Origin: a virus
Taxonomy: Duplodnaviria; Heunggongvirae; Uroviricota; Caudoviricetes
Direction: 5' to 3' (one strand)
Virus record (IMG/VR): IMGVR_UViG_2684622552_000004
Location: 1-37,863 of that record
Length of the DNA stretch: 37,863 nt
The notes below the pieces were generated by a model, which saw nothing but the letters and a program-made list of their open reading frames with translations, was not told the origin of the DNA and searched no databases. Position numbers and translations under genes: made by a program. This document shows positions 1 to 37,863 of the stretch, one piece after another. How positions within the stretch are numbered: the first letter of the stretch is position 1; each line of letters opens with the position of its first letter.

Positions 1-1512
1 ATGATGTTAAATAATAAAAAACACTATTCAACATATATTTTGATATCAGTACTTATTATTATGTTACTGATAAGGGAGTTTTGGTTTGCTAGCAGACAGG
101 GACTACATATCGATGAGTCTCTGTCTTTTATCCTATCCGCCTATAAAGATTATGGATGGACAAAGGTTTTTGGTTCTCTAACAGAGATAACTGGTAGCCA
201 GGTACGGCAGTTGATATGGTTCAGTGACGATTCTATAAAAGGAATGCTTCGCGATGTATATCATTTGTGGCAAGATAACAGAGACACCCCTCATAGCAAT
301 CTATATTATTCATTATTAAGAATGTGGTTCACTGGGATAAATCCAGAAGGCAACACTTCATTTATAACAAACTGGGCATTTAAGCTTAACCAGTTATTTT
401 TCGTTGTTTCTTTTGTTGCCATATACGGCATAGCGAATAGGTTATTCAACAGTAAACAAATAGCAATATTGGTAGTTTTTGTTTCATTCATTAATACAGC
501 ATCTATATCAAACAGCATTTTTCTTAGACCATATCAAATGCAAGAAGCGCTTGTAGCGATATATACGCTTACCAGCCTAATTTTAATTAGAGAAAAATTA
601 TCATTGCGCTTATTGGTTATCCATTCAATTTCAACATCACTTGCAATGTTGAGCGGCTATTTTGCTCTATTTTATGTTGCAATGATTTCTGTTTTCTTAT
701 TTCCCTATTTAATTATAAAGTATAAAAATAATTTAAAAAACGCCATCTCATTTGCAGTAAAATACATCGCACTAACCTCGATTATTTCTTACGCGGTATA
801 TCCAAAATATTTTTTCGTTGATGGGAACAGGCAAGGAGAGGCATTAGATAAGCTTGGTAGTTTTAGCGACAACCTAGTTAATTCAGTAAAATCATTGTCT
901 ATGATTAATGACTTCTTTCCTATCGGGGTGTTAATCGCGCTAACAGTCATAGCGGTGTCATTGTTTTTTATTGTTAAGAATAAAAACATAATGAGTGAAA
1001 CTAATTACTTTGTATTTATTCTTGCATCAACCGTTATGATGTGGGTGATAATCGTGCAATTATTATCCCCATATAAGAACCTTGCTAGATATATATACCC
1101 ATCACTGCCTATGTTTGGTTTGTTTTACGGATATATAGTATTCAGCATATATAACAATTATAAATCAGTAAAGGCATTACCCATCATTGCATCAGTAGTT
1201 ATATTGATATCATCTACGTATTTATATTTTAATGGTGAAAAGGTCGATTATATTAATAAAAATAGAGAAAAAGATTGCGCCATTATTCCTGAACATAGTG
1301 TCATAATAGCAAAATCACCATGGAAAATGGGATACATTGCAACCTGCCTTAATTCAGAGGAAAAGTACGGAATGACTAATAATTTTGACTATAACATTTT
1401 CAAATCAAAAGGGTATACCACTATAATAAGCGACCAAGATATAACCAGCGAAAACGTTAAATTAGTTAATGGAAATGTCATGGTCTACTTCAAAAAATAC
1501 AGCATGAATTGA
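1..1512 (+). CDS. Polytopic membrane protein, putative O-antigen-modifying glycosyltransferase (GtrC-like serotype conversion)
   Basis: 503-aa ORF with many hydrophobic helices, visibly AT-rich versus the rest of the window. Convergent with the tailspike gene, the position GtrC occupies in P22-like prophages. Assignment is positional; no motif was verified. Confidence 0.4.
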   Translation: MMLNNKKHYSTYILISVLIIMLLIREFWFASRQGLHIDESLSFILSAYKDYGWTKVFGSLTEITGSQVRQLIWFSDDSIKGMLRDVYHLWQDNRDTPHSNLYYSLLRMWFTGINPEGNTSFITNWAFKLNQLFFVVSFVAIYGIANRLFNSKQIAILVVFVSFINTASISNSIFLRPYQMQEALVAIYTLTSLILIREKLSLRLLVIHSISTSLAMLSGYFALFYVAMISVFLFPYLIIKYKNNLKNAISFAVKYIALTSIISYAVYPKYFFVDGNRQGEALDKLGSFSDNLVNSVKSLSMINDFFPIGVLIALTVIAVSLFFIVKNKNIMSETNYFVFILASTVMMWVIIVQLLSPYKNLARYIYPSLPMFGLFYGYIVFSIYNNYKSVKALPIIASVVILISSTYLYFNGEKVDYINKNREKDCAIIPEHSVIIAKSPWKMGYIATCLNSEEKYGMTNNFDYNIFKSKGYTTIISDQDITSENVKLVNGNVMVYFKKYSMN

Positions 1513-1519
1513 TTAACAC

Positions 1520-1548
1520 GGCCCCATTATAGATGGGGCCACTTTTAG
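1520..1548. terminator. Bidirectional hairpin terminator between convergent genes
   Basis: Perfect 8-bp inverted repeat GGCCCCAT / ATGGGGCC with 5-nt loop, followed by CTTTT, in the 32-bp gap between the membrane-protein gene and the tailspike gene. Confidence 0.5.
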
Positions 1549-3980
1549 ATATTAGATGTTTGAATTATATCTGTATTCGCTTTATTGGAGGAAGGGTAAT
1601 TACAAGTAAATGTTGAATTCAATGTCGCATTTTCTCCAAACCATAGCTTATTTGTTGTACTAACAGAACCAGAGACAGATCCAGATATTTCCAATCCATT
1701 TATAGCATCTCTGAATGTATTTTTAACGCATCTAATGGTTTGATAATGAGATAACCATGACTGCCCTCCAGTATCCCTAAACAAACATGATGCTGCTGGT
1801 ACGCCAGGAGTTGATGAACTAATAAAATTACCTATCATTTCAAGGTAATTATATGGTCCAGTTAATGCAGTACCTGCAGGAAGGCTAGCAATGATATTGC
1901 CACCATTAAGGATGTTATTGTTTACCCTCATTATCTTTGGTGTATATCCTGACGGACTTATATCCAGTAAATATGAGTTATTCACACCAAAGTCATTATC
2001 ATTAATTTCAACCACACAGGAGCTTGAACATTTTATATTAAATCTTGTATAAGTCCCTTCAAATTTATTGCGATTTAACCTCACATAATTAAACCCATTG
2101 CCTAAGTTAGAATACATGCTACCGAAGAAGCGAGTTCCTGGTATTGCGTTATTCCATATGAATTTATTGGAATTGATATCCAGAGATGTTGAATAACTCC
2201 CGAAAGAAAATGAACAGTTCCTGAATTCATTCCCTTGAATTAATACTTTTTCAAAATTACTTACATGTAGATTGGCTGTTGAGGTTACTAAAAGCCTGCC
2301 CATGATATTGTTTGTTAGGCGCAGTGATGAGTTTGATATTTCTGGCTGGTCAACACCAATAATCATTCCATCACCAGTTATGTTTATTGTGTTATTATCA
2401 ATCCTCCAATCAGAGTTAGTTATATGAGTATAAATAGTCATAAAAGTAGGGGCTTGGAAAACATTATTCTCAATATTAACATTATAGGATGTCATCAAAT
2501 AATCGTTACTTCCAGAAGCACCCAATAAAAATATTCTATCCTTAGATAAAACAGTATTTCCGCTAATAGTTATAGCTCTTAACCAGTTAGTGTTAAACCA
2601 TTCCGTTCCTTTATTGTTGCTGATCATCATCCACATTCCATCACATGTTGCTGTGTTTCCTGTTACTGTGATCTGCCCCCATGGCTGAACCTGAGCAGCA
2701 CCAGTTCCGCCACCCGTATCAAATGCCATACAATAATCAATGATATCAAATGTATTGCCAGTAACTGTATATCTGTTAAAACCGAATCTACCTTTAACCG
2801 CTCCATTTCCGCGAGTATTTATTCTATTCCTGAAGGTATTACCTGTTACAGTAATATCACCAACCAGAATTCCATTACCCTGATCTGTAAATGCTGCTCC
2901 TGCGGTATAAACCGCATGGTCATACCATCCAAGAAATGAGCAACTAGACACTCGAAGGTTTCTGGCATTCCCTACAACACAACCACCAGGTGCGTCTTTA
3001 AAAACCATATCAAAAACGACCAGTCCTGACGTTTTTTTGTCATGGTTATAATATGTCTCTCCAGCAACTGGGATGTTACCATCAGGACCATGTATATAAG
3101 GAGATGTACCACCTGGTTCGATATCACCATAATAAGTTTGGTCTGGAATTCCTGTAGTGCTGCTGGTTCCCGATGCAGCAACTTCAATTGAACGTGCATT
3201 ACCATCAATTTGTAACCCATGCACCGACTGAGCACCTACAGCACCACTCAGGAATCGGAATAATTTACGGGTATCTCTTGCCGGATCAATCTCGGTCGTA
3301 GAACCTTCAACAAAGTATGTGCGATACCGGCGAGTAATAGTTGCTGAACCATCGCCCCATACTGAACGAACATATGACCATACATTAACAGCCGTATCAA
3401 AACAGTATATTCCAGTTGGGAAGTATACGGAGCATTTAAGATTATGCGCCTCATCCATGACCATCTGAACTTTAGGCTGATGGTTTATTGAAAGGTCACC
3501 AGATGCCAAAGCAGCCAGCTCTGCTTCGTTCATATATTTTGTAGCCAGAATACTTGGTGTCTTCTCTACATATTCATCAAGTGTTCCATATCGGGTGTTT
3601 ACAAGAGAACCATTGCCATTAGCTAATTCAAGGCGCAACTGGTCAGGATCGTATTTCAGTACATTAGGATAATAGAACTGCTGTGCCCCGTACGCATCAT
3701 AAACAGCCATAGAATGGCCTTTCACAGTTACGAACTTGGCAATCTGCCCGTTATATACAGGATATCCAGCAGCGTTAATGATGATTGGTTGCGAAACAGG
3801 AACGTGAGAACCATCTTCGTTCTCTATATAAACCTGAATCTGGTTTTCAGGATTTACCGGGTCAGTGTCAATTTTTCCGATATAAATTTTTCCATTGGCT
3901 ACGGCTTTAAAAGAACGCGCCATAGTGAAGAGTTGCGAAGGCATACTCACTACAACATTGGCATTTATTGAATCTGTCAT
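1545..3980 (-). CDS. Tailspike protein: P22 gp9-type N-terminal head-binding domain plus divergent beta-helix receptor-binding domain
   Basis: N-terminus [12 protein letters not shown]...[12 protein letters not shown]...DTDPVNP...[10 protein letters not shown]...VLKYDPDQ closely resembles the P22 tailspike head-binding domain. The rest has repeated VTGNTF / ISGNT / IDNNT rungs typical of parallel beta-helix O-antigen depolymerases. Start moved to internal ATG at 3980 (MTD...); the ORF track extends 15 codons upstream. Confidence 0.9.
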
Positions 3981-4067
3981 TTTAATTTCTCTATATGTTA
4001 AGCCAGCAATATTCATTGCTAGCATGTTTTTTGTATAATGAGTGCACTTTATTTAAAGGTGGTTAAC

Positions 4068-4577
4068 ATGAACTGGAACGAAGTATTCGTATTAAAAGAC
4101 GATGGACTCCTGTACTGGAGTGACCAATATCTTTCAAGACCCAAAATGTTCAATATCTCTAAAGAAAAGCCTGCAGGACATATATTCAAGGACAAGAACA
4201 GGAAAACCTCTTATATAATTATTAGGTATCAAGATAAAATATACGCCGCCCACAGGATAATATGGGAAATGTGTTATGGTGAAATCCCTTCCGGAATGCA
4301 AATTGACCATAAAGATGGTAATGGGTTAAATAATTCAATAGACAACCTGCGTCTAGTTAGTCTCGGTGAAAACCTAAAAAACAAATCTAAATACACAAAC
4401 AATACATCTGGGTGCGCAGGGGTTTCATGGCATAAGACCCATAAAAAGTGGGTGGCATATATTAGCGACGCAGGGAAGCGCATTAATCTCGGATACTTTA
4501 AGAGTCTCGATGATGCAATTGCTGTAAGGCGTGAGGCTGAAAAGACCTATGGTTATCATGAGAATCATGGTAGGTAA
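4068..4577 (+). CDS. HNH homing endonuclease with C-terminal AP2-like DNA-binding domain
   Basis: Motif IDHKDGNGLNNSIDNLRLVSLGENLKNKS (HNH His-Asn-Asn) followed by AP2-like segment SGCAGVSWHK...WVAYI...GKRINLGYF. SD AAAGGTGG 6 nt before the ATG at 4068. AT-rich, opposite strand to flanking virion genes. Confidence 0.8.
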   Translation: MNWNEVFVLKDDGLLYWSDQYLSRPKMFNISKEKPAGHIFKDKNRKTSYIIIRYQDKIYAAHRIIWEMCYGEIPSGMQIDHKDGNGLNNSIDNLRLVSLGENLKNKSKYTNNTSGCAGVSWHKTHKKWVAYISDAGKRINLGYFKSLDDAIAVRREAEKTYGYHENHGR

Positions 4578-4751
4578 TGTCTGTCATTTAATTTGCTCCA
4601 GACGTAGCAATGCGGAACAAGATGCAACTTGCCCGGCATTGCACTAATGTCAGTTATGATCTGTTAATTATGAGATGAGTCTATGCAAAGAGATCTGTTG
4701 AATATTGCGTTCTACATATTTGGTTTTTGCGCGTTCCTGGTGTTTGCGAAA

Positions 4752-6749
4752 CTATTCTGACAACGCATCAGACTTAGCGCCTTGGGTCAGCGCGTTAATG
4801 GCCTTTTGCGCCTGCTGCATGGCTTTCTCAAACGCTGTTGATCCGCGTGGGGTGTTTGCCATTCGGAGCATTGCATTTCTGAATGGCTCGCTCTCATAGG
4901 CGCGAGTAAGAAGTCCGTAGCTTACTGCTGCGCCAGTTGTTGCAGGGTTCATTGCCGTCCCATACCCGATAATGAACGGGATGGTTTGCTGGCCTGTGGG
5001 TGTTGTTACAGCCGCTTTTGCAGCCTGCTGCGTGGATTGAAGGTAGTTTTTCAATCCTTTCAGATAAGCGGCTTCCTGACCTTGAAATGTGATTCCAGTC
5101 TGGTTTTGCAGGATGTTAAGCTGTCGAAGGAACTGGTCAGGGGATCCGCCAGATTTCTCCATCGCCTTTCCAATGATGCCATTGCGCATTTGCGCCCTGC
5201 CAACACGACCAACTGAGTTATACAGAGTCTTAATTTCCGATTTGTTCTTGCTGAATAGCATGTTGTTGACAACTTCCGGCGTCAGGTCGCCTTTCATGAG
5301 AACATTCTTCAGCCTGGTATTTTTTAGTTTCTCCGCTTCGTCAGCGTAGACGGCATTGGCCTGCTGATATTTACGGAGAGTATCGTTGCCAAGATTCTGA
5401 CCAATGGCACCATTGATATCTTCGGTCATCGCCTTGTAAACTCGCTGAATGGCGGCATCGGAACGGTTTGGTAACACTGGTCGCTCCCCCTTCACGTCCA
5501 TTCTGAACTGGCTGCGCAGGTCGCTTAATTGCTTCAAATCCAGATTTACCGGACCATCAGGGCCAGCATTGCGAACAAGCTCATCACGATATGACTGAAG
5601 TTTTGAAATAGTCTCGTTATCAGCAACCTTACCAAGCTTCTGCAGGTTAGATATCTCAGTATCTATCTGCTGAATTGCTCGTGCAGGCTGAATGTTGACT
5701 CCTGCCATTGCATTCTGAACCTGCTCAAGACGGTTCCCAGCAGCACGACGAATTCCTGATGTTTTCGCTTTAAGGCTGTCAATAACAACCGCTGGATCAT
5801 ACTCACCGAATTTATCAGCAAATCTCTGAACCAACTGACTTCTCGCTTCCTGTTGCGTTGCTCTCATTCCGCTTGTGCCAGCCAGGGGGATATTTTCTGC
5901 TGTCGTTTGCGCCATTTTTCCGACGCGGGAAGTAGGCTGTAACAGGTCTGTGGTGTGCAGAGGCACTCCTTCACGCTCTGCAAATCTGATAGCTTGCTGC
6001 GCTTCTGGTGCAATAGCACCACGAACGCCACGATAAGCAGCGCCTAATCCACGTCCGGCAGCGTTAATAGTGCCGCCAGCCAGAACGCCAACGCCTAAAT
6101 CGGTAGCGAGTGCTTCCGCATCATCTTTCGCACTATTTGCAGCAAGTGACCCGACTGCGTTTTCAGCGATAAGGCGAGTTGCACCCTGAGCGATTCTACC
6201 AGCGAGTGTTGGTGCCTGTGTTGCCGCTCTCTCAATGCCAGCAGGAGTGAGGTAAGGCAATGCTTCAGCAAATACCCTTCCCTCTGTCGTTTGTGGAGTC
6301 AGCGCGCCTTGCTGAAGGCCAAAGTCCTGCTCTAATCCCTGCGTTGTTACTCGTGGCGCTGGTTGATATGTCCCATCGCCAATTCCGAGTTTACCGCCAG
6401 CCCAAGCCGCCGCGCTTGTTACAGCATCGGCAACTGATGCAGGTATGTTTGCCACGTTCACGCCAGCCTGCACCAGTCCGCGACCAGTCTCTTTTACTGC
6501 TTCGCCAAGATCAGACATAAATCCACTTTGCTGTGGTTGTTGCTGTGCTACTGGTTGCTGTGTCTCCACTGACTGCACAGATGGCAATGGATAGGCAGCA
6601 TAGAAAGCTTGCTTAGCCTGCTCTGCATTTTCTCCGGCTTGCGGGGCCACGACTTCATTGAAGTATTGCTCCTGAGCCTGCGCTTTTTGTTCTGGTGCTA
6701 ACGCCTGATACTGTGGAGAGGCGATAACATCTTTCCATGCTTTAGCCAT
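4752..6749 (-). CDS. DNA ejection (injection) protein, P22 gp16-like
   Basis: 665-aa ORF in the conserved position between gp20 and the tailspike; start codon overlaps the upstream stop (TAATG). Q/A-rich low-complexity N-terminus typical of ejection proteins. Confidence 0.7.
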   Translation of the reverse strand: MAKAWKDVIASPQYQALAPEQKAQAQEQYFNEVVAPQAGENAEQAKQAFYAAYPLPSVQSVETQQPVAQQQPQQSGFMSDLGEAVKETGRGLVQAGVNVANIPASVADAVTSAAAWAGGKLGIGDGTYQPAPRVTTQGLEQDFGLQQGALTPQTTEGRVFAEALPYLTPAGIERAATQAPTLAGRIAQGATRLIAENAVGSLAANSAKDDAEALATDLGVGVLAGGTINAAGRGLGAAYRGVRGAIAPEAQQAIRFAEREGVPLHTTDLLQPTSRVGKMAQTTAENIPLAGTSGMRATQQEARSQLVQRFADKFGEYDPAVVIDSLKAKTSGIRRAAGNRLEQVQNAMAGVNIQPARAIQQIDTEISNLQKLGKVADNETISKLQSYRDELVRNAGPDGPVNLDLKQLSDLRSQFRMDVKGERPVLPNRSDAAIQRVYKAMTEDINGAIGQNLGNDTLRKYQQANAVYADEAEKLKNTRLKNVLMKGDLTPEVVNNMLFSKNKSEIKTLYNSVGRVGRAQMRNGIIGKAMEKSGGSPDQFLRQLNILQNQTGITFQGQEAAYLKGLKNYLQSTQQAAKAAVTTPTGQQTIPFIIGYGTAMNPATTGAAVSYGLLTRAYESEPFRNAMLRMANTPRGSTAFEKAMQQAQKAINALTQGAKSDALSE

Positions 6750-36472: not shown

Positions 36473-36844
36473 ATGGAATCATACAGCCTCACACTCGATG
36501 AGGCCTGTCAGTTTCTCAAGATATCCAGACCTACCGCCACCAACTGGATACGAACAGGCCGCCTAAAGGCAACACGTAAAGACCCAACCAAGCCAAAATC
36601 CCCTTATCTCACAACACGACAAGCCTGCATTGCGGCGCTTCAATCTCCGCTGCATACTGTCCAGGTGAGCGCGGGTGATGGCATAACAGAGGAAAGAAAA
36701 TGTCACTCTTCCGCAGAGGTGAAATATGGTACGCCTCGTACTCGCTCCCGGGCGGGAAGCGAATTAAGGAATCTCTTGGCACAAAGGACAAGCGGCAAGC
36801 GCAGGAGCTGCACGACAAACGAAAAGCTGAGCTCTGGCGAGTAG
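36473..36844 (+). CDS. xis: Excisionase Xis (large, P22-type)
   Basis: HTH-like [26 protein letters not shown] immediately upstream of int; 123-aa frame overlaps the int start by 145 nt. Confidence 0.65.
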
Positions 36845-37863
36845 ACAGGCTTGGTGATTTTCCAGATGTGACGTTTGAAGAAGCATGCTTGCGCTGGATT
36901 GAAGAGAAGTCAGATAAGAAATCGCTCGATACAGATAAAGGCCGGATGGGATTCTGGCTTGAACATTTTGAAGGTGTGCGGCTAAAGGATATTACTGAGG
37001 CAAGGATTTACTCAGCCGTCAGCAGGATGCATAACCGTAATCACCTTGAGATATGGAAATCAAAAGCAGAGGCGGCAAGGAAGAAAGGAAAACCCGCGCC
37101 TGAATATGTCGCTAAACCAGTCACCACTGCCACCAAGGCAAAGCATCTTGCACTGATGAAAGCCATTCTGAGAGCAGCAGAACGTGACTGGAAATGGCTG
37201 GAGAAAGCACCGATCATCAAGATACCGACAGTACGCAACAAGCGTGTGCGGTGGCTGGAAAAGGAGGAAGCAAAAAGGCTGATTGATGAATGCCCGGAGC
37301 CATTAAAGTCTGTCGTCAAGTTTGCACTGGCGACAGGTTTACGGCGTTCGAACATTATCAATCTGGAGTGGCAACAGATAGACATGCAGCGCCGTGTTGC
37401 GTGGATCAACCCGGAAGACAGCAAATCAAACAGAGCTATTGGCGTAGCGCTGAATGATACTGCATGTAAGGTTCTGCGAGACCAGATAGGCAACCATCAT
37501 AAATTTGTGTTCGTACACACAAAGCCAGCAAGACGGCCTGATGGTTCTCTCACTCCTGCAGTCAGAAAGATGCGAGTCGATGACGGCAGAGCCTGGAAGG
37601 CAGCGTGCAGACGAGCAGGTATTGAGGATTTCCGTTTTCATGACCTGAGACACACATGGGCGAGCTGGCTTATTCAGGCTGGCGTGCCGTTATCTGTGCT
37701 TCAGGAAATGGGAGGATGGGAATCAATCGAAATGGTACGCAGGTATGCTCACCTGGCACCTAATCACCTGACCGAGCACGCGAAGCAAATTGACGCTATT
37801 TTTAACGATAATGTCCCAAATTTGTCCCACGAAGGAAAAGCAGAAGCGGGAGGAAGCATTTAA
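36700..37863 (+). CDS. int: Tyrosine integrase, P22 Int-like
   Basis: 387 aa; [48 protein letters not shown]... and C-terminal ...[17 protein letters not shown]...[20 protein letters not shown] (R-H-R-Y catalytic residues) closely resemble P22 integrase. Confidence 0.9.

Follow-up and report, generated by a model that had tools for sequence, protein, structure and literature searches.

The homing endonuclease I-HmuI of Bacillus phage SPO1 (PDB 1u3e) nicks one strand of its target; it is encoded within an intron, and its host gene is restored by RNA splicing. A second class, the HNH-AP2 homing endonuclease family (Magnani et al., 2004, as cited in PMC10448857), has free-standing members which are abundant in T1-like, T5-like and ICP1-like phages, where they adjoin essential genes, including tail genes, and are interchangeable at one location (PMC10448857). 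Free-standing homing endonucleases of the T4 type (seg and mob genes) spread by "intronless homing", as described for instance for mobE (PMC2790892). We identified a gene related to these systems in IMG/VR virus record IMGVR_UViG_2684622552_000004 (Caudoviricetes), of which positions 1 to 37,863 were analyzed; this whole stretch of 37,863 nucleotides is referred to as the window. The window carries a P22-like (Lederbergvirus) prophage, and we consider it likely that its positions 3963-4573 are a free-standing HNH-AP2 homing endonuclease cassette which has invaded the tailspike gene between nucleotides 14 and 15 of the open reading frame (ORF). This interpretation builds directly on the domain identity and the catalytic residues of the product, the insertion boundaries and empty alleles, the sporadic spread of the gene, its presence at the same site in several contexts and genera, the purifying selection on it and the existence of decayed copies.

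The gene shares with I-HmuI an HNH_3 core of the type D-H...N...N and an N-terminal nuclease followed by a DNA-binding module. It differs in that it is free-standing and antisense, that a second copy of the ribosome-binding site and start makes the host gene complete again, and that the C-terminal module is an AP2 domain; identity in the structural alignment is about 18%. The order of domains, HNH and then AP2, is that of the HNH-AP2 family. Whereas the free-standing HNH-AP2 genes of other phages are typically intergenic, the lineage found in the window sits inside the first codons of an ORF, for which it brings a substitute start, and is restricted to temperate P22-like prophages of enterobacteria. 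The cassette consists of the following parts (coordinates are those of the window):

3963-4573, no strand assigned: entire inserted segment, 611 bp which stand in place of the single nucleotide 15 of the tailspike ORF when compared to the empty allele (from the empty allele of E. coli S87, the junctions of the window and the BLAST pieces of phage Sf6)
3963-3991, minus strand: replacement tailspike 5' end, a ribosome-binding site GAGAAATTAAA and codons 1-6 ATGACAGATTCAATAAAT, encoding MTDSIN (from comparison with S87, Sf6 and CUS-3)
4012-4062, plus strand: putative expression signals of the endonuclease gene as read from the sequence, TTCATT (4012-4017), a 16-nt spacer, TATAAT (4034-4039) and AAGGTGG (4056-4062)
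4068-4577, plus strand: HNH_3 and AP2 endonuclease gene, 169 amino acids (from Pfam, PHROG and PDB matches, fold, aligned residues and RefSeq homologues annotated with 510 nt)
4574-4599, minus strand: displaced remnant of the resident tailspike gene, namely its own ribosome-binding site and the first 14 nt with the start codon, GGAGCAAATTAA ATGACAGACATTAC (from the junction comparison)

The boundaries 3963-4573 were set by aligning the junction with related prophages, among which empty alleles were found. The best empty allele for the context of the window is that of E. coli S87 (locus L045), from which the window differs just by 611 bp in place of one A. Read in the sense of the tailspike gene, S87 has ...GGAGAAAATTAAATGACAGACATTAC-A-GCCAATGTTGTAGTGAGTATGCC or, with the leader included, ...GCTACGTCTGGAGAAAATTAA ATGACAGACATTAC A GCCAATGTTGTAGTGAGTATGCC... 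In the window, the left junction reads ...GCTACGTCTGGAGCAAATTAA ATGACAGACATTAC ^ CTACCATGATTCTC..., where the caret marks the junction; the letters after it are the 3' end of the endonuclease gene, which lies on the opposite strand. The right junction, 611 bp further on, reads ...GAGAAATTAAA ATGACAGATTCAATAAAT ^ GCCAATGTTGTAGTGAGTATGCC... Phage Sf6 matches both flanks without 610 bp, and its BLAST pieces share an overlap of 24 bp. From MTDSIN the reading frame continues into the resident gene at GCC, which is codon 7 of the new ORF and codon 6 (Ala) of the old gene, and the replacement 5' end is identical in all fetched loci occupied by the endonuclease lineage of the window. The remnant at 4574-4599 is repeated imperfectly, in direct orientation and over about 20 bp, at 3972-3991, and tailspike codons 4-5, read on the other strand, provide the stop codon TAA of the endonuclease gene (4575-4577). 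As far as can be read from these junctions, the cassette combines an antisense endonuclease gene and its own expression signals with a diverged tailspike ribosome-binding site and six start codons, which would restore a complete tailspike gene beginning with MTDSIN- in place of MTDIT-. The preliminary description of this DNA had placed the feature at 4038-4751; that interval contains the gene, but positions 4600-4751 are spacer of the Sf6 type and the insertion reaches left to 3963. The stranded original ribosome-binding site and ATG also open an ORF of 29 codons (4498-4587, minus strand, MTDITYHDSHDNH...) which runs antisense into the endonuclease gene, and late transcripts would probably translate this meaningless peptide.

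The ORF caller predicted an endonuclease of 179 amino acids (4038-4577, plus strand). The actual start is probably the ATG at 4068 and not the upstream ATG at 4038, because AAGGTGG precedes it at 4056-4062 and because of the length of the homologues, the intact fetched copies and closest relatives having 169-173 amino acids. The longer caller versions of the endonuclease (start at 4038) and of the tailspike (start at 4025) were dropped, as homologues and ribosome-binding sites favour the shorter ones. The endonuclease matches Pfam HNH_3 (PF13392; E = 3.5e-19, 68.6 bits with a cut-off of 24.8) and PHROG 99 "HNH endonuclease" (1e-58), and an NCBIfam search gave no match. As a single sequence it matches I-HmuI (1u3e) at 4.6e-5 and Pfam AP2 weakly (E = 1.2e-4, 22.8 bits, under the cut-off of 33.3). 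A family profile was made by aligning 44 homologues from a large protein collection and was searched against PDB. It matched I-HmuI over the N-terminal two-thirds (1.4e-11) and the AP2/ERF domain of WRI1 over residues 107-155 (4e-5). An AlphaFold model built on the same alignment (pLDDT 91.3) has I-HmuI 1u3e as its top PDB match in Foldseek (probability 0.99, E = 4e-3). The global rmsd to 1u3e is high because the domains are arranged differently; the C-terminal module of three strands plus a helix fits the plant AP2 domains of TEM1 and ERF1 at 1.3-2.2 A over about 50 residues.

Residues D80, H81, N93 and N102 (169-amino-acid numbering) align with D74, H75, N87 and N96 of I-HmuI, which we take to be its catalytic and metal-binding residues. 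Across the 44 homologues D80, H81 and N93 do not vary, and N102 is conserved in at least 90%. This confirms that the gene encodes an intact HNH_3 and AP2 endonuclease of the I-HmuI-like HNH-AP2 class, with a nuclease activity that is predicted from sequence and model. The HNH-AP2 identity given in the preliminary description thus agrees with the Pfam, PHROG, PDB profile and fold matches. The AT-richness noted there is real, the GC content of the gene being 38.8% against 51% for the virion block, but it is not distinctive, because the tailspike gene (about 38-41%) is about as AT-rich. The region with the putative expression signals is conserved in all occupied loci. The gene runs antisense to the late operon and is preceded by a TATAAT and a strong ribosome-binding site of its own, so the prophage could conceivably express it. 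A terminator scan of positions 3800-4900 detected one terminator-like site, which lies inside the tailspike gene.

The endonuclease gene is rare compared to the locus in which it resides. A 1.8-kb region around it matches 1134 of 5426 complete E. coli genomes, mostly in two pieces that skip the endonuclease, whereas the gene itself is found in 15 of the 5426 (97.5-99.7% identity). It is therefore not conserved in all relatives. Seven further loci with the gene were found in IMG/VR and two in species-representative genomes. Exact empty alleles are present in E. coli S87, Sf6, IME10 and P22, and an empty allele of the type designated C below occurs in about 226 E. coli genomes; the endonuclease has no counterpart at the locus in Sf6, HK620, CUS-3, IME10 and P22. 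Distant HNH-AP2 relatives were found in 3469 phage records, the closest (about 48% identity) in Drexlerviridae-type or T1-like phages. The closest DNA relative of the cassette and tailspike of the window (99.2-99.7%) is the copy of E. coli GDSC2227PM (locus L006). The prophage that contains it is degraded, its tailspike being interrupted and its early genes truncated, and lies beside the csc sucrose genes.

In all occupied E. coli loci that were fetched, the endonuclease gene is divergent against the tailspike start. What lies on its far side varies:

gp16 directly: the window, LD39-1
an Arc gene of the mnt type: PK8568, 357900, 2018-05-5CC
a hypothetical gene and Arc: M160133, EC1515
full ant-arc-mnt: NRG857C, strain 81, PSJ-07
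P63C and Arc: MB50
degraded prophage: GDSC2227PM

At least eight tailspikes that differ in length and receptor-binding part are linked to the endonuclease. Every copy with a recognisable remnant, whether from E. coli, Salmonella or one metagenome lineage, joins the tailspike ORF at nucleotide 14/15, indicating that the target is the conserved tailspike 5' end and not the variable region. The preliminary description had proposed a mobile insertion at a variable locus, namely the slot in which P22 carries sieA and immI. P22 indeed has sieA-orf59a-mnt-arc-ant between genes 16 and 9, and a gene of a mobile type with such a sporadic occurrence fits the first part of the proposal, but the conserved target does not fit the second. 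Neither is the sieA/immI slot occupied or replaced: NRG857C, strain 81, PSJ-07 and phage Kapi1 keep the full mnt-arc-ant set with the HNH gene between ant and the tailspike, and the absence of immI from the window is explained by its Sf6-type arrangement.

Three versions of the remnant were found, each matching a natural empty allele up to nucleotide 14/15:

remnant A, ATGACAGACATTAC: empty allele in S87 and CUS-3
remnant A', ATGACAGACATCAC: empty allele in P22
remnant C, GGAGCAATGAAATGTCAGATATCACC, and with its leader GGAGCAATGAA ATGTCAGATATCACC: empty allele in IME10 and the E. coli genomes counted above for type C

Left contexts and remnants occur in five combinations, and identical endonuclease protein alleles are common to several of these. 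Remnants A and C have six differences in 26 positions and a longest identical run of 7 nt, which makes ordinary homologous exchange within this patch unlikely. Separate insertions at the same nucleotide would be the simpler reading of these sequences.

The same site is used outside E. coli. Homologues of the endonuclease in Enterobacter ludwigii (82% identity), Salmonella enterica (75%) and two metagenomes (66 and 64%) are all divergent against a Head_binding tailspike gene, with gp16, Arc or ant on the far side. The remnant is kept in the Salmonella locus and in the locus with 66% identity (ATGTCAGATATCA... and ATGTCAGACATCAC^CTACC) and has decayed in the other two. A second HNH-AP2 gene is present at the same junction in phage Kapi1 (MT813197; locus L005, 3340-3887) and in 15 E. 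coli genomes. This Kapi1 gene (066, "HNH endonuclease") resembles that of the window in its site, its antisense orientation to the tailspike gene and a 33-bp junction and remnant which is identical. It differs in protein sequence (42% identity over 92 amino acids) and in the replacement tailspike start, MPEQLYNVVV; the two divergent start codons in Kapi1 are separated by a gap of 22 nt. Its occurrence at this site parallels the interchangeability reported for the HNH-AP2 family. The 4 nt GTAG just inside the junction of both the window and the Kapi1 genes were considered as a sign of common cassette ancestry and set aside as too short to decide.

Among 11 distinct intact coding sequences of the endonuclease, 13 synonymous and 7 non-synonymous polymorphisms were counted. 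The resulting pN/pS of about 0.13 indicates continuing purifying selection on the protein. Two copies are decaying: one in IMG/VR (locus L025, 3001-3506) has a 1-nt frameshift after the HNH motif, and one in Escherichia whittamii (locus L032, 3012-3554) is an isolated fragment, truncated at the 5' end and frameshifted, which is equivalent to positions 4232-4778 of the window.

The foremost alternative is that a single ancient insertion has become immobile and that the cassette, with an inert or decaying protein, is inherited with the head-binding module and has reached different contexts solely by the mosaic recombination that is usual in lambdoid and P22-like phages. In favour of this, the cassette is linked without exception to the same MTDS-type tailspike start, P22-like phages recombine heavily around the tailspike and have a visibly mosaic head-binding domain, CUS-3 is annotated with "boundary sequences" exactly at the junction, and decayed copies exist as well. 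We nevertheless regard this alternative as unlikely. The match of remnant C to the natural type-C allele runs to within 2-3 nt of the junction, and the divergence of remnants A and C leaves no identical run above 7 nt for homologous exchange. Identical HNH protein alleles are combined with different remnants and contexts, selection on the protein continues, and occupation of the same site by proteins of 42-82% identity in three genera implies a long-term site-specific association.

For a cassette that homes, we propose a mechanism modelled on I-HmuI-type enzymes and on T4 intronless homing (PMC2790892). Once an occupied and an unoccupied P22-like genome are in the same cell, for example when a phage superinfects a cell that harbours a prophage, the tailspike 5' end of the unoccupied one, ATG[A/T]CAGA[C/T]AT[T/C]AC^N..., would be nicked or cut by the enzyme at or very near nucleotide 14/15, after which recombinational repair would copy the cassette from the occupied genome. 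The right-hand exchange would take place inside the conserved head-binding domain, and the left-hand exchange would be primed from the cut end on the remnant of the donor, so that the recipient would retain its own sequence right up to the junction. Two features would shield the occupied allele: its site is split, and its presumed recognition sequence contains an extra Ser codon. This scheme has in common with the T4 systems that an allele lacking the endonuclease is cut near the insertion and repaired from the occupied genome, and that target differences protect. The T4 systems belong to virulent phages, whereas the homing proposed here concerns a temperate phage in which the target is a virion host-range gene and the insertion is flanked by a direct repeat.

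The tailspike starts are consistent with such a protection. Tailspikes linked to the endonuclease lineage of the window all start with MTDS-I or MSDS-I, in which the extra Ser codon is TCA, TCT, TCC or AGC, and tailspikes of empty alleles start with MTDIT, MSDIT or MTDII. It is plausible that this insertion of 3 nt amid the presumed recognition sequence is an immunity change. About 135 E. coli genomes, and also HK620, have an MTDSINA start without the endonuclease, preceded by an ordinary GGAGCAAATTAA(A) leader; in HK620 (locus L010, around 2844) and loci L014-L017 the spacing is AAATTAA-ATG or AAATTAAA-ATG. Judged from the sequences, these alleles could be what a deletion or repair short-cut between the direct repeats would leave, and they could equally be an old natural allele that was the source of the cassette's end. 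E. coli E2865 (locus L018) has a chimeric tailspike allele in which codons 1-7 are MTDSINA and the sequence continues as the CUS-3-type AATGTGATCGTATCG, with an exchange point within about 25 nt of the start.

More tentatively, and as a proposal that we would not expect to hold in full, the tailspike start may be a dedicated landing site for at least two HNH-AP2 lineages which carry a portable "mini-exon" of ribosome-binding site and start and can thereby live in an essential ORF without an intron or intein. An enzyme expressed from the prophage and cutting the tailspike gene of incoming relatives could then drive both exclusion and co-conversion of the adjacent host-range (receptor-binding) module. 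The MTDSINA alleles of E. coli and HK620 would be immunised scars, left by repair or deletion through the 20-bp direct repeat with skipping of the endonuclease gene.

Several observations weigh against a homing cassette. We infer both the activity and the target from comparative anatomy, and this extends to the cleavage position, the immunity of MTDS alleles and the repair pathway. The variety of remnants could in principle have arisen by ordinary recombination in the 26-bp patch of ribosome-binding site and start, stalling at the edge of homology. No relative above 60% protein identity was found among 50,697 phage genomes, so that all close copies are in prophages. A promoter consensus scan of positions 3800-4900 called no sigma-70 consensus upstream of the gene; as the -35 element matches at just 3 of 6 positions, the promoter indicated above is a putative one. 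The occurrence of MTDSINA without the endonuclease shows that occupied alleles are not alone in having this start, which could be an older natural allele and not an immunity change. Finally, comparison of the head-binding domain of 18 loci in 50-nt identity bins revealed no co-conversion tract specific to occupied loci, the domain being mosaic in occupied and empty loci alike.

It is improbable that the enzyme has been domesticated in the service of the prophage as a weapon of exclusion or competition, which would be made in the lysogen, would cut the tailspike gene when P22-like relatives superinfect, and would be functionally analogous to the nearby sieA/immI cargo of P22. The antisense gene with its own TATAAT and ribosome-binding site, which makes lysogenic expression conceivable, the confinement of close copies to prophages as opposed to isolated phage records, and the purifying selection would all suit such a role. 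Against it, PADLOC matched the endonuclease with generic "homing endonuclease" models alone (best 1.5e-10) and with no defence-system protein model, no partner genes are present between gp16 and the tailspike gene, and an occupancy of about 1% argues against a strong benefit. Since exclusion and homing are compatible, this possibility would add to the homing cassette and not replace it. HNH proteins have packaging roles in other phage groups, yet a terminase-assisting or other essential function of the present gene is in effect refuted by functional relatives which do without the gene (it is missing from about 99% of related prophages as well as from Sf6, HK620, CUS-3, IME10 and P22), by its distance of about 12 kb from the portal- and terminase-sized ORFs, a region that matches the portal and large terminase genes of IME10, and by its I-HmuI homing-type architecture of HNH_3 and AP2.

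The class to which the enzyme belongs is common, annotation pipelines already name the gene an HNH endonuclease, and as a selfish element it is of an expected kind. In the literature searched, coverage of which was incomplete so that a prior description is possible, no description of an HNH gene at the tailspike site of P22-like phages was found, nor a paper which deals with Kapi1 and HNH together. The HNH gene in the epsilon34 paper was considered as a case of the same site and rejected, as it lies in the early-left operon. Two aspects are not described in the literature searched: the use of the first codons of a P22-like tailspike gene as target, and an element inside an ORF which restores the gene by its own ribosome-binding site and start and not by way of an intron, an intein or an intergenic position. 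Which hosts a P22-like phage can infect is determined by its tailspike, and exchanges of tailspikes between phages occur at the border of the conserved head-binding domain. If the homing cassette is real, a nuclease that breaks DNA at the tailspike start would be a concrete driver of tailspike exchange and of competition between prophages and incoming relatives. The design of the insertion would offer a free-standing endonuclease gene a route to occupy coding sequence without splicing, and the enzyme is a candidate for a new nicking or cleavage specificity, with a putative site in P22, Sf6, CUS-3 and IME10.

With the P22-like coliphages IME10 and HZ41 the backbone of the window shares about 96% identity. 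Around the insertion it contains:

1545-3980, minus strand: tailspike gene, 811 amino acids, with an N-terminal head-binding domain (Pfam Head_binding, 4.5e-66)
4600-4751, minus strand: Sf6-type spacer between gp16 and tailspike, outside the insertion and inside an 826-bp match (4575-5400) that is 95.5% identical to Sf6
4752-6749, minus strand: gene for a DNA transfer (ejection) protein of the P22 gp16 type, 665 amino acids, left-hand neighbour (PHROG 770, 4.9e-238, and annotated homologues)

The ORF caller had given the tailspike 826 amino acids (1545-4025, minus strand) by using an upstream in-frame ATG at 4025; the start at 3980 aligns with those of the HK620, Sf6 and CUS-3 tailspikes. According to the ORF list the endonuclease is the sole gene between its two neighbours and is free-standing on the strand opposite to both, as had been stated from the start.

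Three further observations were made in the window. The spacer contains a hairpin (4607-4642, minus strand) which is conserved and also present in Sf6 and E. coli S87. Its RNA has a dG of -23.4 kcal/mol (z = -2.4) and is without a U-tract, and an Rfam search of positions 3800-4900 at a relaxed threshold, which included the hairpin, gave no match; the hairpin may serve to process or regulate the late transcript. At the left end, an ORF of 503 amino acids (1-1512, plus strand, GC 32.4%) that resembles a multi-pass membrane protein is convergent with the tailspike gene. It had no match in Pfam, NCBIfam, PHROGs or PADLOC. Its position is that of P22 gtrC, where relatives have O-antigen polymerase, glucosyltransferase or acyltransferase genes, and its product is probably a novel protein that modifies the O antigen and thereby converts the serotype. 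At the right end, an ORF (36700-37863, plus strand) resembles a tyrosine recombinase or integrase; it matched Xer-type models below their cut-offs and agrees with the view that the window is an almost complete P22-like prophage in integrated form.

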